From NCBI GenBank assembly GCA_965248605.1, contig CBDFJV010000005.1, positions 36,355 to 100,354 of the forward strand: a stretch of 64,000 bases of DNA. The letters run 5' to 3'. The stretch comes from Dehalococcoidia bacterium. GTDB lineage: Bacteria; Chloroflexota; Dehalococcoidia; Lucifugimonadales; CAUZJF01. The number at the start of each line of letters is the position of its first letter. The stretch's first letter is position 1. The translations under genes were made by a program, and so were the position numbers. The notes beneath the pieces are model-generated. The model was not told the origin of the DNA and did not search any database. It saw only the letters and a program-made list of their open reading frames with translations. Below are positions 272 through 62,550 of the stretch, piece by piece.

Positions 272-1516
272 TTGCGCAAGAGAGTAGTTGTTCCGGCAGT
301 TGCGGCCGTTCTAGTGTCCCTACTGGGGCTGGCTTGGCTTCTGATCACGCCTGACCGATCGGTGGTGATGACGATCCTCGCGCACGGACACGTACTCTAC
401 TATTCATCGATCGAGGAGATGGCCGCCGATTCCGATCTGATCATCCTGGGTGAGATTGGTGACGTCGTGGGCCGCGAAAGAGACTACGGGACGGACAAGT
501 GGTGGGAGAAGATCACCAGCCGGGGAATTCCTTTGGCCTTCTATGAAATCGCGGTAACGGATGTCTTGAAGGGTAACGCGAGCGAGAACGTCATAGTGGG
601 CAGAATGGACCTCGAGCGTGTGAACGTTCCTGGTCGGAAATCGATGCGCGCAGGGGACCCGGTCTTGTTATTTCTCGACGAGCGCAGAGCCGAGAATTTC
701 CCAGGTATTTCGATTTTCGACCTTTTCTACTGGCCCGTGAGCGAAGACCACGGCGTTTTCGATGTCTTGCCCGGCGGTCTGGTGCAACCGCACCTGAGGG
801 GGTCCTTTGCACCGCCACCAGCCGATACTCCGCTGGAGCCCCCGACCTTCACGCTCGATGAGGTCCGGGAGAAGGTGCTAGGAGTCAGTCCAAATGCCCC
901 TCGCGATTCGCAGGTCACTCAAGACCCGCCTGGCGGAGTCGGGGTCTCTACAACAGCAGCGCTGGAGACGGAGAGTGCGTCCGAGCCCATCGTCGTGTCC
1001 GAGCCGGTGGAAGCGAGCTACAGGTTATTGAAGTCTTTTGATGCGCTTGTAGAAGACTCGGAGGTGATCGCGATCGGCACAGCTACACACGACGCTACCT
1101 CCACCAAAGAGTACGACGAATACGTTGGTGGCAAACCGGGGCTGCAGTTCGCAACAGCGATTCTGTACCCAGTTCGAGTCGACAGAGTGATTAAGGGGAC
1201 CGTGGGCGATACTCTCCTTTTCGGCCAGTTCGAAGAATACCGAGTGCTTAGAGATGGGCGCTGGTACCTCTTCCGGACGGAAAATGCCCAATATCCTATG
1301 CGGCCGGGCACGCGGTACTTGCTATTCCTTGCGCCGGACCACCTCGGGGAACCTGGCCTATTCTTTTCCAGGGGTCATCCTCCCAGATTTGTGCTTTCCG
1401 AGGGTACGGCCAAGGTTGAAGGGCCGGCGAGGTGGATCCTAACCAAGTACTTTCCCGATACGAGCGAAGACGATCTAATCAGTCAGCTTGAGGCAGCGGT
1501 TCTCGCCCGCCAATAG
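272..1516 (+). CDS. hypothetical secreted/membrane-anchored protein with internal two-fold repeat
   Basis: TTG start. N-terminal hydrophobic segment VVVPAVAAVLVSLLGLAWLLI. Two similar halves (...SDLIILGEIGDV...VTDVLKG... and ...SEVIAIGTATHD...VDRVIKG...). Followed by a terminator hairpin. Confidence 0.6.
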   Translation: MRKRVVVPAVAAVLVSLLGLAWLLITPDRSVVMTILAHGHVLYYSSIEEMAADSDLIILGEIGDVVGRERDYGTDKWWEKITSRGIPLAFYEIAVTDVLKGNASENVIVGRMDLERVNVPGRKSMRAGDPVLLFLDERRAENFPGISIFDLFYWPVSEDHGVFDVLPGGLVQPHLRGSFAPPPADTPLEPPTFTLDEVREKVLGVSPNAPRDSQVTQDPPGGVGVSTTAALETESASEPIVVSEPVEASYRLLKSFDALVEDSEVIAIGTATHDATSTKEYDEYVGGKPGLQFATAILYPVRVDRVIKGTVGDTLLFGQFEEYRVLRDGRWYLFRTENAQYPMRPGTRYLLFLAPDHLGEPGLFFSRGHPPRFVLSEGTAKVEGPARWILTKYFPDTSEDDLISQLEAAVLARQ

Positions 1517-15461: not shown

Positions 15462-16736
15462 ATGCTCGATAAAGCCCTAATATCAGTAACAAGTGGTAAC
15501 GGTGGAAACGGCGCCGTTAGTGGCCGCAGGGAGAAGTTCGTCCCCGAAGGAGGCCCTGATGGTGGCGATGGTGGCAGTGGTGGGTCCGTCTTCCTCAGGT
15601 GTGACGCAGGGCTGAGCACGTTAAGCCGCTTCCGACGCAGCCGTAAGCACGTTGCGGCGGGCGGGACCCGAGGTGAGGGCCGGAAAAAGCATGGGCGAGA
15701 TGGGAAAGACATCGACGTTATGGTCCCCGAGGGAACTGAGGTTTGGCATATTGCAAATGGAGAGACACGTCTTTTCGATCTGACGAAGGACGGGCAGCGA
15801 GTACTCGTTGCTAGAGGAGGACGTGGGGGCAGGGGAAATACGCACTTCACGACATCGACCAACCGATTTTCCCTTCTGGCAGAGCAGGGTGAGGAAGGGC
15901 AGCACATTGAATTAAGGCTTGAGTTGAAGCTACTGGCCGACGTTGGGATCATCGGCGTACCCAACGCAGGGAAGTCCAGTCTACTCAGGGCAGTTAGCGC
16001 GGCACGGCCGAGGGTAGCGGACTATCCGTTCACGACTCTAGAGCCGGTCCTTGGGGTTGTTGAGCACAGGCAACGTAGCTTCGTGATGGTCGACATACCG
16101 GGGCTGGTAGAGGGAGCCCACAGTGGGAAAGGACTCGGTGACGAATTCCTCCGGCATGTGCAGAGGACGCGGATACTGGTGCATCTACTGGATGGCACCA
16201 CTGAAGACCTGACAAGCGAGTACCGAAAGATAAGGTCGGAGTTAAGCCTCTTCGACGAGAGCCTCGCTGAAAAGAGAGAGGTGGTCGTGGTGAACAAGGT
16301 AGACATCTCCGGTGTACAGGAGCGGTGCCCAGGTCTACCTGAGAGGCTGGGCGTCGACGTCGGGGATGTGTCTTGCGTTTCAGCGGTAGCCGGGTCAGGA
16401 ATAGATGAGATGCTGGACCGTGTTATCGGACTGCTCGCGGATGACAGGCAAACCGTGGGTGTCGCAGAGGAGCCGATGGACGTGGAGACGATTCCGGTGC
16501 TCAGGCCAAGCCGTTTGGACCGACGCATCGAAGTACACAAGAGGAACAGCGGGTACGTCGTCGAAGCGCCGGCGGCCGAGAGGATCGCGGCTCTGGTTGA
16601 CCGCAGCAACTGGCATGCCGTCTTGCAACTGCGCGAGCAGTTGCGGAAGCTTGGAGTCGTGGCGGCCTTGGACCGGGCTGGAGTCGGCCCCGGCGACACG
16701 GTGCGGATCGGCAAGCTGGAACTCACCTGGAACTGA
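15462..16736 (+). CDS. obg: GTPase Obg/CgtA
   Basis: Obg fold GNGGNGAVSGRREKFVPEGGPDGGDGGSGGSV and G-domain motifs GVPNAGKSS, DIPG, NKVD. Confidence 0.95.
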   Translation: MLDKALISVTSGNGGNGAVSGRREKFVPEGGPDGGDGGSGGSVFLRCDAGLSTLSRFRRSRKHVAAGGTRGEGRKKHGRDGKDIDVMVPEGTEVWHIANGETRLFDLTKDGQRVLVARGGRGGRGNTHFTTSTNRFSLLAEQGEEGQHIELRLELKLLADVGIIGVPNAGKSSLLRAVSAARPRVADYPFTTLEPVLGVVEHRQRSFVMVDIPGLVEGAHSGKGLGDEFLRHVQRTRILVHLLDGTTEDLTSEYRKIRSELSLFDESLAEKREVVVVNKVDISGVQERCPGLPERLGVDVGDVSCVSAVAGSGIDEMLDRVIGLLADDRQTVGVAEEPMDVETIPVLRPSRLDRRIEVHKRNSGYVVEAPAAERIAALVDRSNWHAVLQLREQLRKLGVVAALDRAGVGPGDTVRIGKLELTWN

Positions 16737-16737
16737 C

Positions 16738-17346
16738 ATGAAGCTAGGCGTGTTCGGTGGTACCTTCGACCCGGTCCATCTGGGCCACTTGATAATCGCC
16801 AGCGAGGTGACGGAACGGGTCGGACTCGACAAGGTACTATTCGTGCCTGCCGGCGATCCGTGGCTCAAATCCGACCAGAAAGTCAGCGCCGCTGACCACC
16901 GCATGGAGATGGTACGACTTGCGATTTCAGATGATGCACGCTTCGAGCCGTCCGCGATCGAGATCGAACGACCGGGTCCAACCCACACCGTAGACACGGT
17001 TGAGGCGCTCAGGCAACAGTACGGTGGGGGGGCCGAACTCCATCTTATCCTGGGCGCGGACCTCGTGGGCGAGTTGGGCCGGTGGTACGAATCCCGGCGT
17101 CTGCTCGAGCAAGTAATGCTCATAGTAGTGTCGAGGCCTGGCTTCGAAGAGCTGGACGTCGAAGCCCTGAAGGCGGTCCACTCGCCGGCGGCTTCCGGGA
17201 CCGTCTTTGTCGAGGGCCTCGGCGTGGGTATCAGTAGCACGGGCATACGGGACCGGGTGGCGACCGGGCGGTCGATTAGATACCTTGTGCCCTGGCGAGT
17301 CGAGCAATACATCCAAGAACACAGCTTGTACAGGGAGGCCGTATGA
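16738..17346 (+). CDS. nadD: nicotinate-nucleotide adenylyltransferase
   Basis: MKLGVFGGTFDPVHLGHL (HxGH motif) and ISSTGIRDR. The ATG lies 2 nt after the obg stop. Confidence 0.9.
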   Translation: MKLGVFGGTFDPVHLGHLIIASEVTERVGLDKVLFVPAGDPWLKSDQKVSAADHRMEMVRLAISDDARFEPSAIEIERPGPTHTVDTVEALRQQYGGGAELHLILGADLVGELGRWYESRRLLEQVMLIVVSRPGFEELDVEALKAVHSPAASGTVFVEGLGVGISSTGIRDRVATGRSIRYLVPWRVEQYIQEHSLYREAV

Positions 17347-17933
17347 CCGAGCTGGAGGCAAGTCTCAATGACCAGGCCGGAGCGATCCTCGACCTGGCGC
17401 TGCGAAAACAGGCCCTCAAGTTTGGGGAGTTCAAGCTCACCTCTGGTGCGACTAGCACCTACTACTTCGACGGGCGCCTTGTCACCCTCGACGCCGAGGG
17501 GGCGCACCGGGTAGCTACTGCGTTCTTGCCTGTGCTGAAGGAGTGCGGTGCGCAAGCGATAGCCGGGCCGACCGTGGGTGCCGACCCTATCGTCGGCGCG
17601 GTAGCCGCCTTGAGTTACCTGGACGGCCATGCTATCCCAGGGCTCATAGTCCGCATGAAGGCCAAGGGGCACGGAGCGAAGCGGATCATCGAGGGGCCGG
17701 TCGAACCCGGTCTCAGGGTGGCGGTCGTCGACGACGCCTGCAGTACCGGCGGCAGCCTGCTGCATACGATCAGGGAGGTCGAGGCCGCGGACTGCGAGGT
17801 GGTCAAGGTAATGTGCATCCTCGACCGGCACCAGGGTGGTAGCGCGGAGATCAAGCGGCTTGGCTACGACTTCCTTGCACTGCTCGGGGCCGACGAACAG
17901 GGCAACATAGCTCCGGCCGGCTTCAGGAGATAA
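17343..17933 (+). CDS. pyrE: orotate phosphoribosyltransferase
   Basis: FGEFKLTSGATSTYYFD and PRPP motif VAVVDDACSTGGS. 4-nt overlap with nadD. Confidence 0.9.
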   Translation: MTELEASLNDQAGAILDLALRKQALKFGEFKLTSGATSTYYFDGRLVTLDAEGAHRVATAFLPVLKECGAQAIAGPTVGADPIVGAVAALSYLDGHAIPGLIVRMKAKGHGAKRIIEGPVEPGLRVAVVDDACSTGGSLLHTIREVEAADCEVVKVMCILDRHQGGSAEIKRLGYDFLALLGADEQGNIAPAGFRR

Positions 17934-18077: not shown

Positions 18078-19316
18078 TGGTCCAACATCATTGAAATGAA
18101 TACCATGATAGTCATTGTTCCTCTTGGGGGTTCAATCGTAACGTTGAACCGAGGAGGAACCATGATGTCTACCAAGAAGTACCGTATCAGACTGACTACC
18201 GACGAACAACAGGAACTCAACGCCTTGGTCTCACGCGGTCGGGCTGCGGCGTACAAACAGACCCATGCGCGCATTCTGCTGATGAGCGATGAGTCACGCT
18301 CGGACGGGGGAATGAAGGACGCGGACATCACCAGCGCGCTCGGTGTGGGACAGTCAACGGTCGAGCGAATACGCAAGCGCTGTGTGGAGGAGGGGGTCGA
18401 GTCTGCGCTGAATCGCAAAAAGCAACTGCGTCGGCGTCAAAAGAGACTGGACGGCGAAGGTGAAGCACGGTTGATAGCGATGGCCTGCGGGGAACCGCCG
18501 GAGGGGCGTGCCAGTTGGACCCTGAAGCTGTTGGCTGACCAGTTGGTCGAGTGTGAGATAGTCGGGACCATTAGCACCGAGACGGTTCGCCAGGCGCTCA
18601 AAAAAAAACGAACTGAAGCCGTGGCTGAAGCAGAGTTGGTGCATCCCGCCCGGTCAGAGCGCGGAGTTTGTGTGCGCGATGGAAGACGTACTGGAGGTCT
18701 ACCAACGGCCGTACGATGGGAATGAGGTTCTGGTGTGCATGGATGAGACGAGCAAACAGCAAGTCAAGGAGACGCGAGTGCCGCGTCCCGCAGCGCCCGG
18801 CTTATCGGCGGCATACGACTACGAATACGAGCGCAATGGAGTGAGCAGCCTGTTCATGCTGTTTGCACCGTTGGACGGATGGCGCCGAGTCGAGGTCAGA
18901 GAGCGTCGCACGAAGGTGGACTGGGCGCATGTGATAAAGAAACTGGTCGACGAGGACTACCCTGACAGAGACCGGATCGTGCTGGTAATGGACAATCTCA
19001 ACACTCACAAGCTGTCCTCGCTATACGAGGCATTCGAGCCTGCTGAGGCGAGGCGTATAGCTGAGCGACTGGAGATACACTACACTCCCAAACACGGGAG
19101 TTGGTTGAATATGGCGGAGATAGAGATCGGTGTGCTGGCTCGACAGTGCCTGGACCGACGGATTGCCAATCAAGACATCCTGCGCGGCGAGGTCAATGCT
19201 TGGCAGAATCAACGCAACCGGGATGTGATACGAGTGGATTGGCGCTTCACTACCGAGGATGCGCGCATCAAGCTAAAGTCACTCTACCCATCAATACAAA
19301 AACGTTGAACCACTAG
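18075..19316 (+). mobile_element. IS630-family insertion sequence (about 1.24 kb)
   Basis: TIRs ctagtggtccaacatc / (rc) ctagtggttcaacg. TA at both ends (18075-76, 19314-15). Encodes an IS630-type transposase. Confidence 0.85.
18162..19308 (+). CDS. IS630-family transposase (two frames joined at an A9 run)
   Basis: The HTH N-terminal part is in frame 0. Downstream of the A9 run at 18600-18608 the +1 frame reads KKNELKPWLKQSWCIPP...DETS...NLNTH...YTPKHGSWLNMAEIE (DDE). GAGGAGG Shine-Dalgarno sequence before the ATG at 18162. Confidence 0.85.
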
Positions 19317-31723: not shown

Positions 31724-33775
31724 CTATGTGTTGGTCGTCGGTCCCTGTCCCAAGCTCTCGTCCAGAATCTCGATCAGGTCTCTGGCTCTCGCGCCGCTTC
31801 CGTCCGCCGTCGAGCCGATGCCCTCCTCGAACATCTGGAGGCAGAACGGACACGAGACCGCGACGGTATCGGCGCCGGTCTCCAGGAACTGCTCGGTGCG
31901 GATGTGGTTGACCCGTCTGCCGCGACTCTCCTCGAGCCACATGTGGCCACCGCCGGCCCCGCAGCAGAATGCGCTCTCTCGCGAGCGCTCCATCTCGACC
32001 AGAGTGGTCCCGGGCACGGCTTCGGCGATGCGCCGGGGTGCGTCGTAGACCCCATTGTGCCGGCCCAGGTAGCAGGAGTCGTGATAGGCGATTGTCGCGT
32101 CGACGGCAGCGACAGGCTTCAACCTTCCGTCCTCGATCAGCTCGGCGACGAACTCGCTGTAGTGCTGCACCTCGAAATCGCCGCCCAGGTGCGGGTACTC
32201 GTTCTTGATCGTGTTGAAGCAGTGAGGGCAGATCGTGACGACTTTCTTTACATCGTACTGCTTGAGGGTCTCGATGTTCTGGGTCGCCATCGTCTGATAG
32301 AGGTACTCGTTGCCCATTCGCCGTGCGGGATCGCCGGAACACGTCTCTTCGTCGCCGAGGACCGCGAAGTCGACACCGGCCCGTTTCAGGACAGCTGCCA
32401 TCGACCTCGCGACGCTCTGGCTGCGCTTCTCCAGGGCGCCCGTGCACCCAACCCAGAACAGCACCTCTGCCTCCGGGTGCTCTGAGAGTGTCTTCACGTC
32501 GAGCCCGTCGGCCCAGTCGAGCCGCGAGTAGGGCGTGCCGCGCCACGGGTGCCCACGCTGCTCCATACTCGCAAGAGCGCTCAGCCCTGCCTCCGGGATC
32601 TCCGCCTTTTCCATCACCAGGTACCGGCGCATGTCGACGATTGGGTCGATATGCTCAACCCCGACCGGACAGGCCTCAACGCATGCGCCGCACGTCAGGC
32701 AGTCCCACAACGCCTCCTCGCTGACGGTGCCGCCGACCAACGGCTTAGTGGCAGCGCCGTCGCCATCGCGTACGACCGAAGGTCCGGCGTCCACCACGTA
32801 CTGCCTCAGGCCCTCGACGACGTGCATCGGCGACAGCGTTTTCTCGCTGATATGAGCTGGGCACGCCTCGGTGCACCTGCCGCAGACCGCGCAGGCGAAC
32901 CCATCGAGAAGCTCCTTGGTCGTGAAGTCTTCGACCTGCGAAGCGCCAAACCGTTCGGTGTTCTCCAGGTCACGTGGGGTAGAGAGTGTCCCCGTGGGCT
33001 CGAGAGAGCGCAGGAAGAAGCTCAGCGGCGACGCCAGCAGATGCATGTGCTTCGACACAGGTATATAGACTGCAAACCCCAGGATCACCGCCACGTGTGA
33101 CCACCACACGATCGCGTGCAAACCGTCGGCAAGGTCTTGGTCCAGGCCAGCGTTCCCAAGCAGCCCGCCCAACGCGGACCCGATGAGGGCCGAGGTCGTC
33201 GGACCTGTCCCGCCAGCAGCCACGTACAGCGCCTCGGCCGTTATCGACAAGACCATCAGCAGCGCGATTAGTAGCAGGATGGCGGCCGCCTCGCGTCGCT
33301 GCGTGAGATCGAAGCTCAACCGGTGGGGAGTCGCGGCCCAGCGGCGTAACGCTGCCCACGCCAGCACTATGAGGAACCCCCCAGCGAGCAGGTCGAGGTA
33401 GACGCTAAAAAGTTCGACCCCGGTGTCGGTCAGCAGCGTCGTCGAAAAAGGGCCCCATGTCGAGTCGCCGTAGATGAAGACGAGGTAGCTGAACACGAAG
33501 GAGAGAAATCCCCAGAAGATGAACACATGCGCCAGTCCGGCCCGATCGCGCTGGGACACGCTCCGGAGGACCCTGGTCTGGCCGAATGCCAGCGGAATGG
33601 CTCCAATGAACCGGCGTAATGGTCGGTCGAGTCGGCCGGCCCGCTTTCCCAACAGCACCAGCTCGAATACGCGGTGGTACATGAACAGGGCGGCGACCCC
33701 AAAGGCGATAGCGGAAGCGGCGTAGACGCCCGTCCAGGTAGGGACGTCGCCGAACAGTGCGTCCGGAGGGACCAT
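31724..33775 (-). CDS. membrane-anchored HdrD/GlpC-like (Fe-S)-binding oxidoreductase with CCG domains
   Basis: N-terminal ~6 hydrophobic helices. Two 4Fe-4S motifs (CAVCGRCTEACP, CLTCGACVEACP). Cys-rich CCG-type repeats (...FCCGAGGG...). Confidence 0.85.
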   Translation of the reverse strand: MVPPDALFGDVPTWTGVYAASAIAFGVAALFMYHRVFELVLLGKRAGRLDRPLRRFIGAIPLAFGQTRVLRSVSQRDRAGLAHVFIFWGFLSFVFSYLVFIYGDSTWGPFSTTLLTDTGVELFSVYLDLLAGGFLIVLAWAALRRWAATPHRLSFDLTQRREAAAILLLIALLMVLSITAEALYVAAGGTGPTTSALIGSALGGLLGNAGLDQDLADGLHAIVWWSHVAVILGFAVYIPVSKHMHLLASPLSFFLRSLEPTGTLSTPRDLENTERFGASQVEDFTTKELLDGFACAVCGRCTEACPAHISEKTLSPMHVVEGLRQYVVDAGPSVVRDGDGAATKPLVGGTVSEEALWDCLTCGACVEACPVGVEHIDPIVDMRRYLVMEKAEIPEAGLSALASMEQRGHPWRGTPYSRLDWADGLDVKTLSEHPEAEVLFWVGCTGALEKRSQSVARSMAAVLKRAGVDFAVLGDEETCSGDPARRMGNEYLYQTMATQNIETLKQYDVKKVVTICPHCFNTIKNEYPHLGGDFEVQHYSEFVAELIEDGRLKPVAAVDATIAYHDSCYLGRHNGVYDAPRRIAEAVPGTTLVEMERSRESAFCCGAGGGHMWLEESRGRRVNHIRTEQFLETGADTVAVSCPFCLQMFEEGIGSTADGSGARARDLIEILDESLGQGPTTNT

Positions 33776-33785
33776 GGTTTCCGAA

Positions 33786-33882
33786 GGGTACAGGGTGCGG
33801 GGTATGGGGTAAAGGCCGAGAGCGGGGGCTAGGGGTTAGGGGTTAGGGGCTAGGGCTTGGGGGCTGGGGGTTGGAGGTTGGC
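33786..33882 (+). repeat. G-tract / TTAGGGG-like low-complexity repeat
   Basis: gggggctaggggttaggggttaggggctagggcttgggggctgggggttgg, with many G3-5 runs on the plus strand in the divergent spacer. Confidence 0.6.
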
Positions 33883-33941
33883 CTGCCACCGCAAGGCGAT
33901 TCGGAGGGATTAGAATGGGAGGGTCTTAAAGAGGACGAGCC

Positions 33942-34430
33942 ATGCCGGTAGACAGCATACGGGTCCGTGTCGGGTCAGGAGCGCCTGATTTCGTGCTCCC
34001 CGCCGCTGGGGGAGGTGAGGTGTCGCTCAGCGACTATCGCGGGAAGCGGTGCGTGGTCCTGGTGTTCCTGCGTGGGTTCCAGTGACCTTTCTGCCGTCGG
34101 CATCTCCGTCAGTTGACGGAGGACTACCTCGAATTCACGCAGGCGGGCGCCGAGGTCATCGCTGTTGTCTGGGAGACGAAAGAGCGAGCGCATACCTACT
34201 TTGAGGAGCACAACGTCCCATTCCTCTGCCTTGTCGATCCGGAGCGTAGGGTCTACGACCAGTACGAAGTGAAGAGCAGTCTCCAGTCTCTAGGCCAGCG
34301 GCCGGGGCTGTTTGTCATTGACGTCGAGGGCATCGTTCGGTACGCCCACCTGGGCTGGCAGCAGTGGGAGATCCCACCCAACGCCGAGGTGCTGGAGGTC
34401 TGTCGCAGTATTCGATGTGAAGCCGGCTGA
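33942..34430 (+). CDS. thioredoxin-fold redoxin/peroxiredoxin-like protein with in-frame TGA (candidate Sec, U-P-F-C)
   Basis: The ATG at 33942 gives MPVDSIRVRVGSGAPDFVLPAAGGGEVSLSDYRGKRCVVLVFLRGFQ-TGA-PFCRRHLRQL.... This is in frame with ORF 34113..34430. The TGA at 34083-85 falls where redoxins have the first Cys of CxxC. Confidence 0.6.
34104..34121 (+). promoter_or_regulatory. SECIS-candidate hairpin
   Basis: ctccgtc-agtt-gacggag begins 21 nt after the TGA. The loop contains GU. Confidence 0.35.
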
Positions 34431-34512
34431 AAGGGGGGTCGCGCGGACAGCGAGCCGCCTCACGTGGAGGCCACGTATCGCAGACAGGTACTCGAAGCCC
34501 TGGCTCTCAGCC

Positions 34513-35451
34513 CTAGCGGAAAAGCACGAGGACCGTCGAGGCCGTCGCCAGCCAGAGCACGATCGTGACGATAAGAGGGATGTCGGTGATCAGCACCTCT
34601 TCCGGTGCTTCTCCGAGATTCTCTGAGTGGACCAGGAAGAGGTACCTGAACAGTCCGTAGACGACGAACGGTATCGTCAGCATCATTGCGTGGTTCTCTG
34701 GAAGGTTGGGAGCGGTGAAGGTGTAGAGGGTGTAGGCGAGGAGCGTCGACGTGGCGACGAGCGCGATAAATTGGTCCAGCAGCGGGACCGTGTAAACCGC
34801 AAGGGTCTCGCGCTGTCTTTCGGCGAGACCGTGGGACGCGACCAGCTCGCTCCGTCTCTTGGCCAGTGCGATCAGTAGCGCGCCGAGGCCTGTACACGTA
34901 TACAGCCATGGGGAAATGGGCACCTGAAGCACAGCAGCGCCCGCAACGGCCCTCAAGACAAACCCAGCGCTGATCGCAAAGACGTCGAGTAGCACGATCC
35001 GCTTCAAGACGACCGAGTAGACTGCCATCAGCGCCAGGTAGGCGAGCGCCACCCACCCGAACTCCGGCACCAGCAGGAATGAGATGGTGACCCCGGCGAG
35101 GGTTAAAGCCGCGGCGCCGGACCACGCCAATTGCACGGGAAGCTGGCCCGATGCTATGGGCCTTAGTCGCTTGGTCGGATGCGCCCGGTCTGCCTCCAGG
35201 TCGAAGATGTCGTTGACCAGGTATACCGCGGCTGACAGCGCCGAGAACACCAGAAAGGCGAGACCGGTCTGGCCGACCAACGAAAGAGCCTTGTCTGTGT
35301 CTCCTACGCTCCAGGCGTCGTCGATCGTGAAGATGAGGGCAAAGAAAATGATAAGGTTCTTGGTCCACTGTTTCGGCCGGGCGGCCACGACCAGCGACTT
35401 CAGGACGCCGAGAACGGAGGGAGGCAGCGTTTGCTCGCGTGGGGTCTCCAC
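34513..35451 (-). CDS. UbiA-family prenyltransferase (decaprenyl-phosphate phosphoribosyltransferase-like)
   Basis: RPKQWTKNLIIF and NDIFDLEADRAHPTKRLRPIASG. Polytopic membrane protein. Confidence 0.85.
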   Translation of the reverse strand: METPREQTLPPSVLGVLKSLVVAARPKQWTKNLIIFFALIFTIDDAWSVGDTDKALSLVGQTGLAFLVFSALSAAVYLVNDIFDLEADRAHPTKRLRPIASGQLPVQLAWSGAAALTLAGVTISFLLVPEFGWVALAYLALMAVYSVVLKRIVLLDVFAISAGFVLRAVAGAAVLQVPISPWLYTCTGLGALLIALAKRRSELVASHGLAERQRETLAVYTVPLLDQFIALVATSTLLAYTLYTFTAPNLPENHAMMLTIPFVVYGLFRYLFLVHSENLGEAPEEVLITDIPLIVTIVLWLATASTVLVLFR

Positions 35452-35546
35452 GTCCTGGATAATACGCTCGGCCCGTTGAGACCGTCAACGGAGATGAGGT
35501 CCACGTACACGGGCTTGGCGGCGCCGTCGATTCGAACTTCCACTCG

Positions 35547-35575
35547 TTGACATCGGAAGTTGGCTTCATTACGAT
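35547..35575 (+). promoter_or_regulatory. sigma70-like promoter for groES
   Basis: TTGACA (35547-52), 17-nt spacer, TACGAT (35570-75), about 85 nt before the groES ATG. Confidence 0.45.
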
Positions 35576-35659
35576 ACCTTGGCAGTCGGTGCGGGAGGCT
35601 GCCAGCCAGCGCGGCTGCGTCTCTCGCGGCCGCCCACAGCCACAAGGAGGAGTGTCAGC

Positions 35660-35965
35660 ATGGCCACCAAGTCTAAGGTCTCGTTCAAGCCCCTCGGGAA
35701 TCGCATCGTCGTCGAGCCCAACGAAGAGGACGCGCAGGTGACCGCGGGGGGGATATACATCCCGGACACCGCCAAAGAGAAGCCTCAGGAAGGCACGGTA
35801 GTCGCGGCAGGCCCAGGTAAGATGAGCGACGACGGGAAGCGGATACCCATGGAGATCGAAGTCGGAGATGTCGTCGTCTACTCGAAGTACGGGGGCACCG
35901 AGTACAAAGAGGGCGATATCGAGTATATGGTCCTTCGAGACGACGACGTTCTGTTCAAGAAGTAG
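35660..35965 (+). CDS. groES: co-chaperonin GroES
   Basis: AAGGAGG Shine-Dalgarno sequence. KPLGNRIVVEP...TAGGIYIPDTAKEKPQEGTVVAAGPG. Confidence 0.95.
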   Translation: MATKSKVSFKPLGNRIVVEPNEEDAQVTAGGIYIPDTAKEKPQEGTVVAAGPGKMSDDGKRIPMEIEVGDVVVYSKYGGTEYKEGDIEYMVLRDDDVLFKK

Positions 35966-36006
35966 TGCAGCGGCTGGACCGCCGGCCGGACAAACGCTAC
36001 AAGTGG

Positions 36007-36043
36007 AAGCGGCTCTGGAGCGATTCCAGGGCCGCTTTCTTTT
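36007..36043 (+). terminator. rho-independent terminator after groES
   Basis: aagcggc-t-ctgga-gcgat-tccag-g-gccgctt followed by tcttttcc. Confidence 0.55.
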
Positions 36044-36228
36044 CCAGGTCGTACGTGCGCTCCATATAGGGATGTGATAGTGCGCTGAGGCCACATGTTG
36101 TGGCCTGGCGGGGCGTCAGGATTGGTCTCCAATTGGCCCCCTTGGACGCTTGACGGCCCCTTGTGGGGCCGTTGTTATAATGGCGCCCATTCCCAAGTCT
36201 GATCCCCGCTCACGGTGCCAGGAATCTG

Positions 36229-46196: not shown

Positions 46197-48419
46197 GTGC
46201 TTAAGCTGTACGACACGATGTCGAAGCAGGTGTCCGAGCTGGAGCCCCTAGAACAGGGTCAAATCAAGATGTATACCTGCGGCCCTACGGTGTACAGAGA
46301 CGCTCACATCGGCAATCTACGTACCTACCTGATGGCGGACTGGATCAGACGGACCCTTGAGTTCCAGGGGGTCTCGGTCACCCAGGTAAAGAACATCACC
46401 GACGTCGGTCACATGCGGCAGGAGATGCTCGAGCGCGGCGAAGACAAGGTGGTCGCGGCGGCGTTGTCCGAGGGGAAGACCCCCTTCGAGATAGCGGCCA
46501 ACTACACAGAGCGCTTCCTCTCGGACGAAGGCAAGCTGAATATCACTCCCGCGGACCAATTCCCGAAGGCGACGGACCACATCGGCGACATGATCAAGAT
46601 CACCGAAGGCCTTGTGGAAAAGGGGTTGGCGTACGAGGCCGGCGGGAACGTCTACTACGAGATTTCGAAGTTCCCCAACTATGGCCAACTCTCCGGTAAC
46701 ACAGGGGAAGAAGGTCTCAGGGAAGGTGTCCGGGTCGAGGTCGACCCGCTAAAGCGAGACCCTCGTGACTTCACGCTTTGGAAAGCCGCCGAGCCGGGCC
46801 GGGAATTGAAGTGGAACAGTCCCTGGGGAGAAGGTTTCCCAGGGTGGCACGTCGAATGCTCTGCTATGTCGATGAAGTACCTGGGGCAACAGTTCGACCT
46901 TCACACCGGCGGCGTAGATAACGTGTTCCCTCACCACGAAGCCGAGATCGCTCAAAGCGAAGGCTTCACGGGCAGCAAGGTCGTGAACCGTTGGGTCCAT
47001 GGACAGCATCTGCTGGCAGACGGCGTGAAGATGGCCAAGTCCATGGGGAACACGTTCATCCTGGCCGACATCGAAGCTCGAGGTATAGAACCGCTCGCGT
47101 TCCGATACCTTTGTCTCACCGCGCAGCACGCCACGCGCTTGAACTTCACCTTTACCGCGCTGGGAGCCGCGCAGCAGGCGCTGCAGTCCCTGAGAGACAG
47201 GATCTGGGAGTGGGAGCTGCTCTCCGGGTCAGCCGAACCCGACGACGACGTTTGGCTGGAATGGAGGGGCAAATTCCTCGATCACCTGAACGACAACCTG
47301 GACCTGCCCGGAGCGCTCGCATTGACGTGGGAACTGGCCCGATCCGACCTTCCCAGCCAGACGAAGCTGGCTACCCTCCGGGGGTTCGACCGCGTCCTGG
47401 GGCTAGGACTCGACAACGTAGCCGAGAGCTATCAGGTCCCCGACGAAATCCAAGCTACAGTTGCTCGGAGATCGATTCTCAGAGAGCAAGCTCAAGCCGC
47501 TGAGCCTGAGGCCCGGCAACCGTTGTACGACCAGGCCGACGCCGTTCGCCAGGAGCTCTCCGAGGCGGGTTACGTCATCGAAGACACGGCCGCCGGCACG
47601 CTGGTCCGCCCGAGGTCGACTTGGGAGAAAAGGCAGGAGGAGTGGAACCAGGTCTCTTCGTCCGCGGAAGTGGACTCGCTTGTTGACGAACCGGATACAG
47701 TGGACTTCACCATAGGTATCGTCGCAAGTAACTACGTCGACGACGTATCTCGGTGCGTTCAAAGCGCCCTCAGATGGGCCGGAGATAGGCCGATTGAGGT
47801 GATCGTCCTCGATAACGGATCGACGGATGGCACGGGGGAATGGATTGAGGAGGTCGCGTCCAAGGACGAAAGGGTGCGAGCAGCGCACACCGATCACGTG
47901 TTGGGCCAGGGAGCTGCCGCGAATATCGTGCTAAAGCTGAGTCGTGGAGGGATCGTCGCCCTGCTCGATACCAGCGTGGAGGCGGTCGGTGACTTCCTCG
48001 AACCGCTGCAGAGCTTGCTCGCCGACGACACCATAGGTGTCGCAGGACCGTTCGGACTGCGCACGACTGACTTGCACCACTTCCACGATGGAGAAGGAGA
48101 GAGCGGCGATATGGATGCGATGCAGGCGTACTGTTTCGCGTTCAGACGTAGCAGTGTACCGGTCGTCGGACTGATGCGGGAGACCTTCAGGTTCTACCGC
48201 AACCTCGATCTCGACTACAGTTTCCATTTCAAGGATAAGGGCTACCGAATCGTTGCGGACCCTTCGCTGCCATTCACCCGCCACGAGCATCGAGTATGGA
48301 GCGAGCTTGGCGAGGACGAGCGCGAAGACCTCAGCAAAAAGAACTATCGACGCTTCTTGGACAAGTGGGGCGAGCGAAGCGACCTCCTGGTCGCGAACCA
48401 GGCTCCGCGCGCGCAGTAG
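46197..48419 (+). CDS. cysS: cysteine--tRNA ligase fused to a C-terminal GT2 glycosyltransferase domain
   Basis: Residues 1 to ~480 form a complete CysRS (CGPTVYRDAHIGNLRTY, WHVECS, KMAKSMGN, DALR-like LNDNLDLPGAL, C-terminal ADAVRQELSEAGYVIEDT). Residues ~500-740 are GT-A (IGIVASNY...EVIVLDNGSTDGT...ALLDTS). Confidence 0.9.
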   Translation: MLKLYDTMSKQVSELEPLEQGQIKMYTCGPTVYRDAHIGNLRTYLMADWIRRTLEFQGVSVTQVKNITDVGHMRQEMLERGEDKVVAAALSEGKTPFEIAANYTERFLSDEGKLNITPADQFPKATDHIGDMIKITEGLVEKGLAYEAGGNVYYEISKFPNYGQLSGNTGEEGLREGVRVEVDPLKRDPRDFTLWKAAEPGRELKWNSPWGEGFPGWHVECSAMSMKYLGQQFDLHTGGVDNVFPHHEAEIAQSEGFTGSKVVNRWVHGQHLLADGVKMAKSMGNTFILADIEARGIEPLAFRYLCLTAQHATRLNFTFTALGAAQQALQSLRDRIWEWELLSGSAEPDDDVWLEWRGKFLDHLNDNLDLPGALALTWELARSDLPSQTKLATLRGFDRVLGLGLDNVAESYQVPDEIQATVARRSILREQAQAAEPEARQPLYDQADAVRQELSEAGYVIEDTAAGTLVRPRSTWEKRQEEWNQVSSSAEVDSLVDEPDTVDFTIGIVASNYVDDVSRCVQSALRWAGDRPIEVIVLDNGSTDGTGEWIEEVASKDERVRAAHTDHVLGQGAAANIVLKLSRGGIVALLDTSVEAVGDFLEPLQSLLADDTIGVAGPFGLRTTDLHHFHDGEGESGDMDAMQAYCFAFRRSSVPVVGLMRETFRFYRNLDLDYSFHFKDKGYRIVADPSLPFTRHEHRVWSELGEDEREDLSKKNYRRFLDKWGERSDLLVANQAPRAQ

Positions 48420-50952: not shown

Positions 50953-51636
50953 GTGGCATTTACGGGCTTTCCGTCGAAGGTGCGATACACACCCGTTCCA
51001 AGCTCGCTATTTAGCGAGCTTCTGGAGCAGATAGATGACATTGCGGAGCTCAAATGCACCTTGCGTCTCATGTGGCTCTTGCACGAAAAGAGGAGCTACC
51101 CTCGCTTCCTGACCCGTCGTGAGCTAGTTACGGATAGGGTCCTCGCTAGGGTGCTGGTGAGGGATGGCAGCGATCCGCAGGCCGCTATCGACAGAGCCTT
51201 GATGTCGGCCGTACGCCGGGGGACCTTCCTATCGGGGCTCGTGAAGGGCACCGGGGCGTCGGAGCGCGTCTACGCTCTGAACACCGAGCCCGATCGCAGA
51301 GCGATGGCCAGGGTGGTGACGAAGACGTCGCTGGGCGGAGAAGAAGTCCCTCCGAGTGCCCAGGAAGAGCCGAGCGAGCGTCCAAACATCTTCGGCCTTT
51401 ACGAGGACAACATCGGGCTACTGAGCCCGATGATCGCCGAAGAGCTGAAACACACCGAAGCGGCCTATCCTCACGGTTGGATAGAGGACGCCTTTCGGGA
51501 GGCCGTCAGCAACAACAAACGTAGCCTGAGGTATATCACCGCGATACTGGAACGATGGGAGCGAGATGGAAGGGGCGATGGAAGACCTCTCCGATATCCT
51601 AAAAAGAATAGCTTCGAAGAACGGGTCGGGAGATAG
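50953..51636 (+). CDS. DnaD-domain replication protein
   Basis: GTG immediately after the dnaB stop. C-terminal DnaD/DnaB_2-like segment NIFGLYEDNIGLLSPMIAEELK...SLRYITAILERWERDG. Confidence 0.7.
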   Translation: MAFTGFPSKVRYTPVPSSLFSELLEQIDDIAELKCTLRLMWLLHEKRSYPRFLTRRELVTDRVLARVLVRDGSDPQAAIDRALMSAVRRGTFLSGLVKGTGASERVYALNTEPDRRAMARVVTKTSLGGEEVPPSAQEEPSERPNIFGLYEDNIGLLSPMIAEELKHTEAAYPHGWIEDAFREAVSNNKRSLRYITAILERWERDGRGDGRPLRYPKKNSFEERVGR

Positions 51637-52981
51637 CAGGCCGCGAGAGCGTCCCCAGGATATTGACGAGCCCGAAGTCTGCGGCGTCTGCAGCGGCCGC
51701 GGCTGGCTGACCACAGACGTCCCAGCCGGTGACCCCAACTTCGGGCGCTTCGTTTTGTGCGAGTGCCAGGAGCCGCGGGTCGACGAGGAGCGGTATTCAA
51801 GGCTCCTTCGGTACAGTAACCTGGGCGCCCTGAGCCGCTTCACGTTCGAGACCCTACGGCGACCGCCGTCTGAAGGACCGGACGATGAGAGCCGGTACGG
51901 CGAGGCCTACCAGGCCGCTGAATCGTACGCGGAAAGCCCAAGCGGCTGGCTCGTCCTCACCGGACCTTACGACCCAATGAAGGTGCGGCTGGCCGCCGCT
52001 ATCGGCAATCGATGCCTCGAGCGCGGCTACGTCGTCTTGTTTGTTCACGTGTCGGACCTGCTCGACCACCTCCGGGCAACCTTCAGCCCAACGAGCGAGA
52101 TGGCTTACAGCGAGCTCTTCGATCAGGTCAGGAACACCCCGCTCCTGATACTCGACGACCTGGGCAGTCACAGCACGACGCCCTGGGCCGAGGAGAAGCT
52201 CCGACAGATCGTCAACCAGCGGTACAATGCCGAGCTCCCGACCGTCATCACCACGACCGGCGATCTGAACGAGGTCGACCCTTACATTCTCAGCCGTATT
52301 CAATCGCCGGACCTCAGCCGCATCTTCGAGGTAGGGACCGAGCCTAAGGGCCCCACGCACAGGTTAGGCGGGATCGATCCCGACATGCTGAAGCGGATGA
52401 CGTTCACGACCTTCGACGTTCGCGGGAACGGCCCTAGCGATGGTCAGAGACGCAGCATCGAGGCTGCCCGTACGGCTGCCAAGAACTTCGCGGCCGACCC
52501 CGACGGCTGGTTGACGCTCTTCGGCGAGACCGGCGTCGGCAAGACGCACCTCGCGGTCGCCATCGCCGCTGAGCAGATCGAGAAGGGGAAGTCGATCTTC
52601 TTCGCCAGGGTTCCCGAGCTTCTCGACTACCTCAGGTACACTTTCAGCCCGGACAGTCCGGTCACCTACGACCGGCTATTCGAGGACGTCAAGACCGCGC
52701 CCCTGCTCATACTGGACGATCTCGGTCAGGAGCACAGCAGCCCCTGGGCGAGCGAGAAGCTCTATCAGATCGTCGTCCACCGTCACGATGCGCGGCTGCC
52801 GACAGTGGTCACCAGCATGGTCGACTTCACGAAGGAGCACGGCCCGATGGGCTCGCGGGTCCAGGACACGTCCGTTGCGCTTGTCTGCAGAATCGACGCC
52901 CCCGACTACCGAAACAAGGCGGCCAGGCGCAGTGGGAGCCCGCGTCAGTCCGGCGCTACCCGGGCGCGACCCTCGCGCTGA
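51566..52981 (+). CDS. DnaC/DnaI-like helicase loader with N-terminal Cys4 knuckle and two tandem AAA+ modules
   Basis: CGVCSGRGW...CECQ. Module 1: WLVLTGPYDPMKVRLAAAI...LLILDDLG. Module 2: WLTLFGETGVGKTHLAVAI...LLILDDLG. Confidence 0.8.
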   Translation: MEGAMEDLSDILKRIASKNGSGDSRPRERPQDIDEPEVCGVCSGRGWLTTDVPAGDPNFGRFVLCECQEPRVDEERYSRLLRYSNLGALSRFTFETLRRPPSEGPDDESRYGEAYQAAESYAESPSGWLVLTGPYDPMKVRLAAAIGNRCLERGYVVLFVHVSDLLDHLRATFSPTSEMAYSELFDQVRNTPLLILDDLGSHSTTPWAEEKLRQIVNQRYNAELPTVITTTGDLNEVDPYILSRIQSPDLSRIFEVGTEPKGPTHRLGGIDPDMLKRMTFTTFDVRGNGPSDGQRRSIEAARTAAKNFAADPDGWLTLFGETGVGKTHLAVAIAAEQIEKGKSIFFARVPELLDYLRYTFSPDSPVTYDRLFEDVKTAPLLILDDLGQEHSSPWASEKLYQIVVHRHDARLPTVVTSMVDFTKEHGPMGSRVQDTSVALVCRIDAPDYRNKAARRSGSPRQSGATRARPSR

Positions 52982-60759: not shown

Positions 60760-60800
60760 TGGTGTTCCTCCTGTTACTCGTGATTGCTTCTCACCCTGGT

Positions 60801-60840
60801 CCCTAATCCCCAACCCCTAACCCCAAACCCCTAATCCCTA
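60801..60840 (-). repeat. TTAGGG-like G-tract repeat (G-rich on the minus strand)
   Basis: ccctaatccccaacccctaaccccaaacccctaatcccta. The reverse complement shares ggggttaggggtt with 33786-33882. Confidence 0.55.
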
Positions 60841-62550
60841 ATCCACCGAAGGACGGCGTGTAGGAGGCCTGCTGAAGAAACAAAAGGGTGCGCCTCTGAA
60901 TCTGGGATAATGGTTTTGAAACAGAAAACCGGTCCCAGAAAAGGAGCACCCGATAGATGCTACCACGTAACCACCCCGACCGCATCCAAATCGCCTTCGA
61001 CGACCACCGCCTGGTGGCCAATGCCGGGCTGATCCTTCCCGCCACCCTCGCCCTGCGCCTTGGCCTGCCCCAACTCCTCCGGAAGCACCTCGACCTCGGC
61101 GGCGCGCCGGGCCGGGCGAACACCGGCGACAAGATGATGACCCTGGTGGCCTCCGCCCTAGCCGGCGGAGATTGCATCGACGACGCCGATGTGCTGCGCG
61201 CCGGCGGGACCGCCCGCGTGCTCGGTTTCACGGCTAAGGCTCCCTCCACCCTGGGCACCTTCCTGCGCAGCTTCAGGTGGGGCCATGTCCGCCAACTGGA
61301 CCGGGTGAGCCGCGAGTTGCTGGCCCGGGTCTGGAAGGCCGGTGCCGGACCCGGCGACGCACCATTCACCATCGACCTTGATTCGACGATCTGCGAGACC
61401 TACGGACTGGCCAAGGAGGGCGCCCGCCACCACGGCTACACCGGTGCGCGGGGCTATCACCCGCTGCTGGCCGTCGCCGCCGGCACCGGCGACGTGCTGA
61501 TGGCCCGCCTGCGCGAGGGCCGGGCTAACACCGCCCGCGGCGCTGCCCACTTCCTGCGTGAAACGGTGGGGCGGGTGCGCTACTGCGGAGCCAGGGGCCA
61601 ACTCACGGTGCGGGCCGACAGCGGCTTCTATACCCACGCCGTGGTCGCCGTCTGCCGCCGGATGGATGTCCGCTTCTCCATCGCCATCCGCCAGCGCGCC
61701 CGCCTGCGGAATCTCATCGAGGCGATACCCGAAGATGCCTGGACGCCGATTCCTTACTGGCTGGACGGCGCCGCCGATGTGGCCGAGACCACCTACACCC
61801 CGTTCCAGGCCGAGGCGGACGCCGCGCCGGTACGGCTCATCGTCCGGCGGGTGAAGCCGGCGCCCTGTTCTCAACTGGCTCTCTTCGCCACCTACAGCTA
61901 TCACGGCTTCATCACCGACCGGGACGGGGAGACGCTGGAACTGGAGGCCGATCATCGCCGTCACGCCGAGATCGAGAATGCGATACGCGACCTCAAGTAC
62001 GGCGTGGGGCTGAACCATCTCCCCTCGGGCCGTTTCGCCGCCAACGGCGCCTGGCTGGCGGTACAGGTGATGGCGCACAACCTGGCCCGCTGGACAGCCC
62101 GCATCGGCCTGGGTCAGCAGATCGTGACCACCAAGACCCTCAGACGACGGGTCTTTGCCTTGGCCGGACGGATCACCCGCTCGGCACGCCGATTGACCCT
62201 GCAGCTTCCCCGGCGCTGGCCCTGGGAGGAGCAGTTCAGCCGCGCCCTGGCCCGACTGCGAGCCATTCCACTCCCAGCCTGACGGAGCCCGTCCGCCACT
62301 GACCCACCAGCCAACCCAACGTCCCCGCAAACTCGCGCCAGCCCAGTCCGCGAGCGCCTCTTGCCGTGTCCTATCCCGCCATCTGGCTCGCCACAGCCAC
62401 TGTAGGCCGCCATCGGTGCCCCCCAAAAGCGCCTGCAGACCGCCCGCCAACCTCCCGTCTACCCAAATTCGAGCCCGGATCATCACGCCTGTAACTCCCT
62501 CACCCCCTTCCGCTGTCCTCACGTCGTCCATCCCTGTCCGTCGGTGGATT
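60840..62550 (+). mobile_element. IS1380-family insertion sequence (about 1.7 kb)
   Basis: Imperfect TIRs aatccaccgaaggacgg / (rc) aatccaccgacggacagg. Single 441-aa transposase ORF. Confidence 0.8.
60957..62282 (+). CDS. IS1380-family transposase
   Basis: IAFDDHRLVANAGLILPATLALRLGL, FTIDLDSTICETYG, RADSGFY, ENAIRDLKYGVGLNHLPSG. Confidence 0.9.
   Translation: MLPRNHPDRIQIAFDDHRLVANAGLILPATLALRLGLPQLLRKHLDLGGAPGRANTGDKMMTLVASALAGGDCIDDADVLRAGGTARVLGFTAKAPSTLGTFLRSFRWGHVRQLDRVSRELLARVWKAGAGPGDAPFTIDLDSTICETYGLAKEGARHHGYTGARGYHPLLAVAAGTGDVLMARLREGRANTARGAAHFLRETVGRVRYCGARGQLTVRADSGFYTHAVVAVCRRMDVRFSIAIRQRARLRNLIEAIPEDAWTPIPYWLDGAADVAETTYTPFQAEADAAPVRLIVRRVKPAPCSQLALFATYSYHGFITDRDGETLELEADHRRHAEIENAIRDLKYGVGLNHLPSGRFAANGAWLAVQVMAHNLARWTARIGLGQQIVTTKTLRRRVFALAGRITRSARRLTLQLPRRWPWEEQFSRALARLRAIPLPA

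Follow-up and report, generated by a model that had tools for sequence, protein, structure and literature searches.

Does an in-frame TGA codon within a redox motif end a gene or encode selenocysteine (Sec)? This question is raised by a locus in a 64,000-nucleotide (nt) stretch of DNA from a Dehalococcoidia bacterium (contig CBDFJV010000005.1, positions 36,355 to 100,354), referred to below as the window. From the letters of the sequence, an initial annotation had proposed that the frame opened by the ATG at 33942 runs through a TGA at 34083-34085, and that this codon is read as Sec rather than being the mark of a pseudogene. Our results support this proposal. The conservation of the TGA column among homologues, the existence of homologues with cysteine at the same site, signs of selection on both sides of the codon and a hairpin that is itself under selection point to 33942-34430 being, with high probability, one intact gene for a Sec-containing "Prx-like thiol:disulfide oxidoreductase."

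Re-reading of the sequence confirmed all of the coordinates involved, namely those of the ATG, of the in-frame TGA and of the open reading frame (ORF) 34113..34430, with which the upstream frame is continuous. The ATG is preceded at a distance of 6 nt by a Shine-Dalgarno-like AAGAGGA (33929-33935, + strand); a simple scan detected no sigma-70-type promoter. The coding sequence (33942-34430, + strand) ends at a second TGA (34428-34430) in the same frame as the internal one and specifies 162 residues, including the proposed Sec48. Around the internal stop the translation reads ...VVLVFLRGFQ, the stop, and then PFCRRHLRQLTEDY..., which gives the redox motif RGFQ-U-PFC; the TGA (34083-34085, +) is position 1 of U-P-F-C, and the second position of the UxxC motif is Cys51 (TGC, 34092-34094, +), which is Cys in all 66 sequences of the alignment described below. 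When Cys was put at the stop, the 162-aa product matched the Pfam family AhpC-TSA (PF00578) over residues 10-134 (E = 7.4e-29; 100.6 bits against a cutoff of 26), and this domain therefore spans the TGA. Matches to Redoxin (E = 5e-19) and AhpC-TSA_2 were also obtained, and the AhpC/TSA/redoxin fold that had been expected of the combined product is thus borne out. The ORF lister splits the gene into 33942..34085 (47 aa) and 34113..34430 (105 aa, with a TTG start). It had been anticipated that an ORF caller would report only the C-terminal 105 aa, and the databases do hold mostly fragments of about 100-108 aa, with relatives called as 45-47 aa plus 105-106 aa.

The homologues show how consistently the TGA is placed. 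A search of 5.8 billion proteins gave 377 matches, most of them only ~100-108 aa long and covering the C-terminal 64% of the query, as would result from gene callers ending their predictions at a conserved TGA. From metagenomes, a scan yielded 80 loci with 57-74% protein identity, and in all 80 of those fetched (L010 and L020 included) the TGA stood at the identical column, as it did in L001, L005, L006 and L088-L093. Locus L001, the closest representative from a genome, which was found in the genome scan and belongs to a Dehalococcoidia metagenome-assembled genome (MAG), is 95% identical in nucleotides and has the same TGA and an identical hairpin. Among distinct full-length homologous genes, the TGA occupied the column in 77 of 77, and there were no other in-frame stops. 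An ATG lies 46-47 codons before the TGA in 79 of the 84 homologous loci, and many homologues have a purine-rich, Shine-Dalgarno-like sequence ahead of the start.

The alternation of Sec and Cys at this column, for which the initial annotation had suggested looking, was also found. Two database proteins are genuine Cys forms (P0004 and P0006, with GFGCPFC), the TGC codon being verified in the DNA of locus L007, and a distant relative (L002, 36% identity) has the Cys codon TGT at the Sec column. Cys forms are rare, with 3 against more than 80 Sec forms, and two of the Cys forms are 86% identical to each other. Several database proteins that appear to be full-length have a W at the column; a TGG reading of these was rejected, as the DNA has TGA and the proteins had been called under genetic code 4. 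These entries (P0002, P0003, P0005 and P0007-P0009; loci L005 and L006) come from short metagenome contigs whose translation did not reproduce the deposited protein, and are full-length only in appearance.

The coding signal is the same on both sides of the codon. In the 77 distinct genes, the entropies at codon positions 1, 2 and 3 were 0.82/0.56/1.51 over the 46 codons upstream of the TGA and 0.66/0.49/1.22 over the 110 codons downstream, and the codon differences upstream comprised 46,930 synonymous and 48,870 non-synonymous changes. These sequence comparisons indicate purifying selection in a single reading frame before and after the TGA.

Downstream of the TGA lies a candidate Sec insertion sequence (SECIS) element, the hairpin CUCCGUC-AGUU-GACGGAG (34104-34121, + strand), with a stem of 7 bp (34104-34110 paired with 34115-34121), a loop AGUU at 34111-34114 and an extra U.G pair (34103/34122) that extends the stem. 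The hairpin and the GU in its loop had been reported correctly in the initial annotation; the distance of 21 nt after the TGA had been given loosely, as it holds from the first base of the TGA, and the hairpin starts 18 nt past its last base. We aligned 54 nt from the TGA onward, free of gaps, in 66 distinct sequences. The stem columns 23-28/33-38 were paired in nearly all of them, the loop was AGUU in 62 and GGUU in 4, and G30, U31, U32 and G33 were invariant. Paired cells amounted to 87.7%, compared with 73% in shuffled alignments, and changes on both sides of a pair were seen in four of the seven stem pairs (42 cells). The covariation score was 0.395, compared with 0.13 in shuffles (none of 500 reached the observed value) and 0.04-0.09 in slid registers. 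The paired codons swap as reverse complements (Arg CGU/Thr ACG, Ser UCG/Arg CGR, Ala GCG/Arg CGC and Arg CGC/Ala GCG), so that residues change non-conservatively and the pairing is kept. Codon choice points in the same direction: the Leu codon at nt 31-33 was UUG in 66 of 66 sequences (8.5% of Leu codons elsewhere in the same genes), the Leu codon at nt 22-24 was CUC in 61 of 66 (34% elsewhere in the same genes), and the Ser codon at nt 25-27 was UCG in 43 of 43. Judged from this alignment, the synonymous sites within the hairpin are frozen, and the comparative evidence indicates that the hairpin is an RNA element under selection. The two Cys-form loci had no hairpin in this register.

We compared the hairpin with the bacterial SECIS (bSECIS) consensus of bSECISearch, as given in Fig. 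2 of PMC13188914. That model has a loop of 3-9 nt and an upper stem of 4-16 bp; here the loop is 4 nt and the stem 7-8 bp, and at least 6 contiguous stem pairs were present in 53 of 66 homologues. The model also expects a G at loop position 1 or 2, as a rule with G or U after it, and here a G at loop position 2 is followed by U. The spacing from UGA to loop is 25 nt, inside the published range of 16-37 nt, and its register is fixed in all homologues. The minimum free energy is -12.2 kcal/mol in the window, below the limit of -7.5 kcal/mol, and 59 of 66 homologues also pass this limit. The hairpin thus keeps its register, covaries and fits the published model, as the initial annotation had led one to expect of a functional element. 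It resembles the E. coli fdhF-type SECIS and the bSECISearch consensus in being a stem-loop just 3' of the UGA, within the coding sequence, with a small loop in which G is followed by U. It differs from the fdhF element in its unrelated sequence, in the absence of a conserved bulged U and in the position of the loop G-U, which is at +23/+24 in fdhF and at +30/+31 here.

Several observations weigh against reading the codon as Sec. The 63-nt local fold has a z-score of only -1.25 against dinucleotide shuffles, which makes the hairpin alone unremarkable; in this window of 61.7% G+C, 4.6% of all UGA triplets have a bSECIS-like hairpin behind them, and for a hairpin of the strength seen at 34104-34121 the share is 1.6%. 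The outermost stem pair (22-39) is kept in only 22 of 66 homologues, and in 7 of 66 the hairpin is weaker than -7.5 kcal/mol. No Rfam SECIS or other relevant family matched at the gathering score in the whole window, nor at E <= 10 in 34040-34200. None of the 40 window ORFs scanned with Pfam contained a SelA, SelB or SelD domain, ARAGORN found no tRNA-Sec in the window (and no tRNA at all) or in 60 related loci, and no sel genes were found in the fetched homologous loci. Locus L001, from the GTDB Dehalococcoidia MAG representative, carries a 7-nt frameshifting deletion in the C-terminal half of the gene (L001:3340-3350, corresponding to about 34278-34284 of the window), to be explained either by an assembly error or by local pseudogenisation; in L088, a relative of 4.65 Mb, the gene is intact. 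Finally, a 2026 review (PMC13188914) grades the Prx-like family as "predicted with high confidence" and not as experimentally verified. Taken by itself, the hairpin is weak evidence; its significance comes from its conservation, covariation and frozen synonymous sites across the homologues. As bacterial SECIS elements share little sequence (PMC13188914), the lack of an Rfam match is not surprising.

Among the alternatives, the one that survives best is read-through without selenium, in which the UGA would be decoded by a suppressor, such as a near-cognate tRNA for Trp or Cys, while the hairpin slows termination. The missing Sec machinery in the window and the fetched loci, and the failure of the hairpin to match an Rfam SECIS model, would be compatible with this explanation. 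We nevertheless regard it as improbable, because the residue that alternates with the TGA, in a redox UxxC motif, is specifically Cys, the loop G-U is invariant, as the bSECIS model requires, the spacing lies within 16-37 nt, and the family is catalogued as a selenoprotein family. In addition, Dehalococcoidia are documented users of Sec: two Dehalococcoidia MAGs in BSepDB, with 49 and 46 selenoproteins, are among the richest bacteria (PMC13326102). Chloroflexi were listed among selenoprotein-containing bacteria in 2006 (PMC1794560). The window itself is a core chromosomal region containing dnaA, pyr/car genes, dnaE, metG, cysS, rplI and dnaB.

A pseudogene or a true truncation, with a CxxC redoxin gene disabled by a nonsense mutation and expression confined at best to the C-terminal ORF of 105 aa, is considerably less probable still and is in effect refuted by the homologue comparisons. 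ORF callers do return only fragments, and L001 bears its additional frameshifting deletion; against this, the same TGA column recurs in more than 80 independent and divergent homologues with no other in-frame stop, both halves are under purifying selection in one frame, and the start codon is kept among the homologues. In the 105-aa piece, strands beta1-beta3 and the active-site helix would be missing, and its TTG "start" is the UUG made up of the hairpin loop and the closing pair, with no Shine-Dalgarno sequence there.

A reassigned genetic code, with TGA read as Trp (code 4) or Gly (code 25), is scarcely credible. Gene callers did adopt code 4 for several short homologous contigs, but TGA ends 14 of the 37 Pfam-confirmed window genes at the expected length, the selenoprotein gene included, so that TGA is an ordinary stop here and the code is not reassigned; nor does any other window gene have an in-frame TGA with a coding signal on both sides. 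Two screens of the window for a second TGA-interrupted gene, one based on G+C content at third codon positions (GC3) and one on trained codon log-odds, gave no convincing candidate, and no other TGA in the window combined coding signal on both sides, a place outside a confirmed gene and a redox motif. A sequencing or assembly error is equally hard to credit: TGA is one base away from TGC, TGT (Cys) and TGG, and the W in some database proteins could hint at TGG, but the DNA behind these entries has TGA, the contigs being short and the calls made under code 4, and the TGA is found again in dozens of independent assemblies, produced by many projects with many technologies, which together with the purifying selection on its two sides excludes the error or truncation that the initial annotation had named as a refuting outcome.

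With the codon read as Sec, expression of the gene would proceed as follows. The ribosome would start at the ATG at 33942 and reach the UGA at 34083, where the hairpin at 34104-34121 would be bound by SelB carrying Sec-tRNA(Sec). Sec would then be inserted in place of termination, and translation would run on to the stop at 34428. The predicted product has 162 residues on a BCP/PrxQ-like scaffold, with U48-P-F-C51 at the N-terminus of the first active-site helix. The selenolate of Sec48 is the putative attacking nucleophile on the substrate, a disulfide or a peroxide; Sec48 and Cys51 would then form a selenenylsulfide, which a thioredoxin-type reductant may reduce.

In alignments with sequences of solved structures, U48 corresponds to the first, nucleophilic Cys of the CEPC motif in ResA, and in the BCP-type peroxiredoxin 5enu it aligns with the Thr of TxxC, and C51 falls on the peroxidatic Cys. 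The initial placement of the TGA at the catalytic Cys of a redoxin CxxC motif therefore holds for a thioredoxin/ResA-type CxxC and fails for true peroxiredoxins, where the codon is in the Thr column and the peroxidatic residue is Cys51. Relative to the canonical peroxiredoxin site PxxxTxxC plus Arg, the Cys is present (C51), the Thr is replaced by Sec48 and the Pro by Arg44. Arg120 (codon 34299-34301, + strand), in the invariant SLGQRPGLFVID, is itself invariant across the homologue alignments and lies one residue off the peroxiredoxin Arg in the phmmer alignment to 5enu. The alignments make it a candidate equivalent of the catalytic Arg of the peroxiredoxin active site, and its position within one residue leaves room for peroxidase activity.

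For the fold, we used an AlphaFold (AF2) model of the Cys homologue P0004, which is 53% identical and has the same residue numbering (predicted local distance difference test score, pLDDT, 87.8; predicted template modeling score, pTM, 0.86). In this model, the CxxC residues 48-51 lie at the N-terminus of helix 49-60. The best matches of the model in the PDB were BCP/PrxQ/AhpE proteins, with template modeling (TM) scores of 0.85-0.89, and ResA had a TM score of 0.74. By the alignments and these matches, the protein is a peroxiredoxin scaffold carrying a thioredoxin-type UxxC site.

Among known selenoprotein families, the closest in its described properties is the Prx-like thiol:disulfide oxidoreductase family. 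The PF00578 UxxC family has been described as a selenoprotein family in PMC1088965, PMC2398784 and PMC13188914; a 2022 review also grades the Prx-like UxxC/UxxU family as "predicted with high confidence," and it appears as "Prx-like 1" in the Global Ocean Sampling (GOS) data, with 225 sequences. The gene shares with it the PF00578 domain, Sec at position 1 of UxxC, the rarity of Cys homologues and the bSECIS-type hairpin after the UGA; the reference protein of the family is WP_010940744.1, and the likeness is drawn from the described features of the family. It also resembles the Sargasso Sea set of the "Prx-like protein" (22 Sec against 4 Cys forms) in that the Sec form dominates. Of the defining features of the Prx-like PF00578 UxxC/UxxU family, all those open to a test here were present in the gene.

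Other relatives are less close. Like PrxU of Eubacterium acidaminophilum (TxxU), the protein has an AhpC/TSA fold with Sec in the turn of the active-site helix; in PrxU, however, Sec takes the place of the peroxidatic Cys, whereas here it lies three residues N-terminal to it, at the Thr position, and Cys51 is kept. Because the position of Sec is wrong for this type and the PrxU model NF040737 scored only 41.3 bits, below its cutoff of 270, the protein is not a PrxU-type selenoperoxiredoxin. The best NCBIfam match was the SelL-related redox protein model NF040769 (89.3 bits, below its cutoff of 120, and over residues 17-113 only), and the protein does share with SelL a Prx-like fold with the redox motif in the same place. 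Shchedrina and colleagues reportedly described animal SelL in 2007 as having a UxxU motif and a eukaryotic SECIS in the 3'-untranslated region (3'-UTR). In this UxxU motif and 3'-UTR SECIS, animal SelL differs from the gene studied here (PMC2398784). Similarity to the ResA/TlpA/CcmG-type oxidoreductases is seen in the best PDB sequence match, B. subtilis ResA (1st9; E = 1e-14), in which GTWCEPC aligns with GFQUPFC; as the CxxC is aligned residue for residue, Sec48 corresponds to the nucleophilic N-terminal Cys. The protein differs from this group in a predicted fold nearer to BCP/PrxQ/AhpE than to ResA and in having no membrane anchor or signal sequence in its 162 aa.

The clade to which the gene belongs nevertheless has features that set it apart from the described family, namely its own signature (RGFxUPFCRRHL ... 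SLGQRPGLF ... GWQQWEIP) and its occurrence in Dehalococcoidia/Chloroflexota-type organisms and uncultured organisms of soil, sediment and deep sea, the family having first been found in Geobacter/Deltaproteobacteria. No NCBIfam model covers the clade at its cutoff. It is conceivable, though unlikely, that the clade is a distinct and almost obligately Sec-dependent subfamily with a hybrid peroxidase mechanism, and not a plain thiol:disulfide oxidoreductase. The hybrid mechanism belonging to this reading, to which we assign the same low probability, would have a BCP-type scaffold on which a GPx-like selenolate takes the Thr position, while the Cys at the peroxidatic position and the Arg are retained. 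If correct, this mechanism would be one not yet characterized biochemically. On this reading, the clade also gives an exceptionally clear example of residue covariation (R/T, S/R and A/R pairs) being imposed on a protein by an RNA element.

Returning to the locus of the Prx-like selenoprotein, the gene stands alone between a CCG-domain Fe-S oxidoreductase (31724-33775, - strand, divergent) and a UbiA prenyltransferase (34513-35451, - strand, convergent). This arrangement is kept only in near-identical relatives. In a soil and sediment clade, the neighbors are an ArsA-like ATPase and an S49 peptidase. In a marine clade (L090-L093:7562-10321), a same-strand gene for a 712-aa Thioredox_DsbH/Thioredoxin_7 protein precedes the selenoprotein gene by 130 nt, and an ECF sigma factor comes after the selenoprotein gene; this arrangement may represent a clade-specific redox-stress module. 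No conserved operon partner was found across the clades compared, and since the neighbors differ between them, none can be inferred. The Fe-S neighbor (683 aa) has a 4Fe-4S dicluster domain and two CCG (HdrD/GlpC-like) domains and contains no in-frame TGA; "Fe-S oxidoreductase (GlpC)" is a selenoprotein family in Deltaproteobacteria (PMC1794560). As the two genes are adjacent only in near-identical genomes, a functional link between them is unsupported.

Some further features of the window were recorded. Directly before the selenoprotein gene, the intergenic region between the divergent genes contains a G-rich heptamer tandem repeat, GGGGTTA/GGGGCTA, in about 7-8 copies (33824-33881), and the complementary heptamer TCCCTAA occurs in 6.4 copies at 60800-60844. 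L001 and L088 have only two copies at the upstream site, followed by ~110 nt of unrelated sequence; the site is variable and possibly G-quadruplex-forming. Two overlapping ORFs at 18096-19308 (+), with HTH_32/HTH_23 and then DDE_3 endonuclease domains, resemble an IS630-family transposase that a frameshift has split, an ORF for an IstB-like ATPase lies at 51566-52981, and L088 carries additional insertion sequences beside the selenoprotein gene. A 740-aa ORF at 46197-48419 (+) joins a cysteinyl-tRNA synthetase catalytic domain (residues 15-326) to a family-2 glycosyltransferase (506-630); this may be an unusual fusion, or a naive ORF call may have merged two genes. The long ORFs at 272-1516 (+), 16395-17831 (-) and 34460-36094 (-) had no Pfam match at 1e-5; the last of these, with a GC3 of 0.50, overlaps the real UbiA gene and is probably spurious.

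The Prx-like selenoprotein gene adds to a long-known family, as catalogues have contained UxxC Prx-like selenoproteins since the mid-2000s, and it raises no new biological question. Its value for the family lies in annotation. Public calls are almost all wrong, consisting of ~105-aa C-terminal pieces (one of which is named "redoxin domain-containing protein" by NCBI), 45-47-aa N-terminal pieces or code 4 "Trp" read-throughs, and the last of these artefacts could mislead analyses of Sec and Cys usage. Annotating one 162-aa selenoprotein mends the split gene calls. The fixed-register hairpin with its covarying codons is a good training and test case for models of bacterial SECIS elements, of which Rfam currently captures none. 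For the organism, the gene implies that the host Dehalococcoidia-like genome is probably a Sec user, which predicts selA, selB, selC and selD and further selenoprotein genes elsewhere in the genome.

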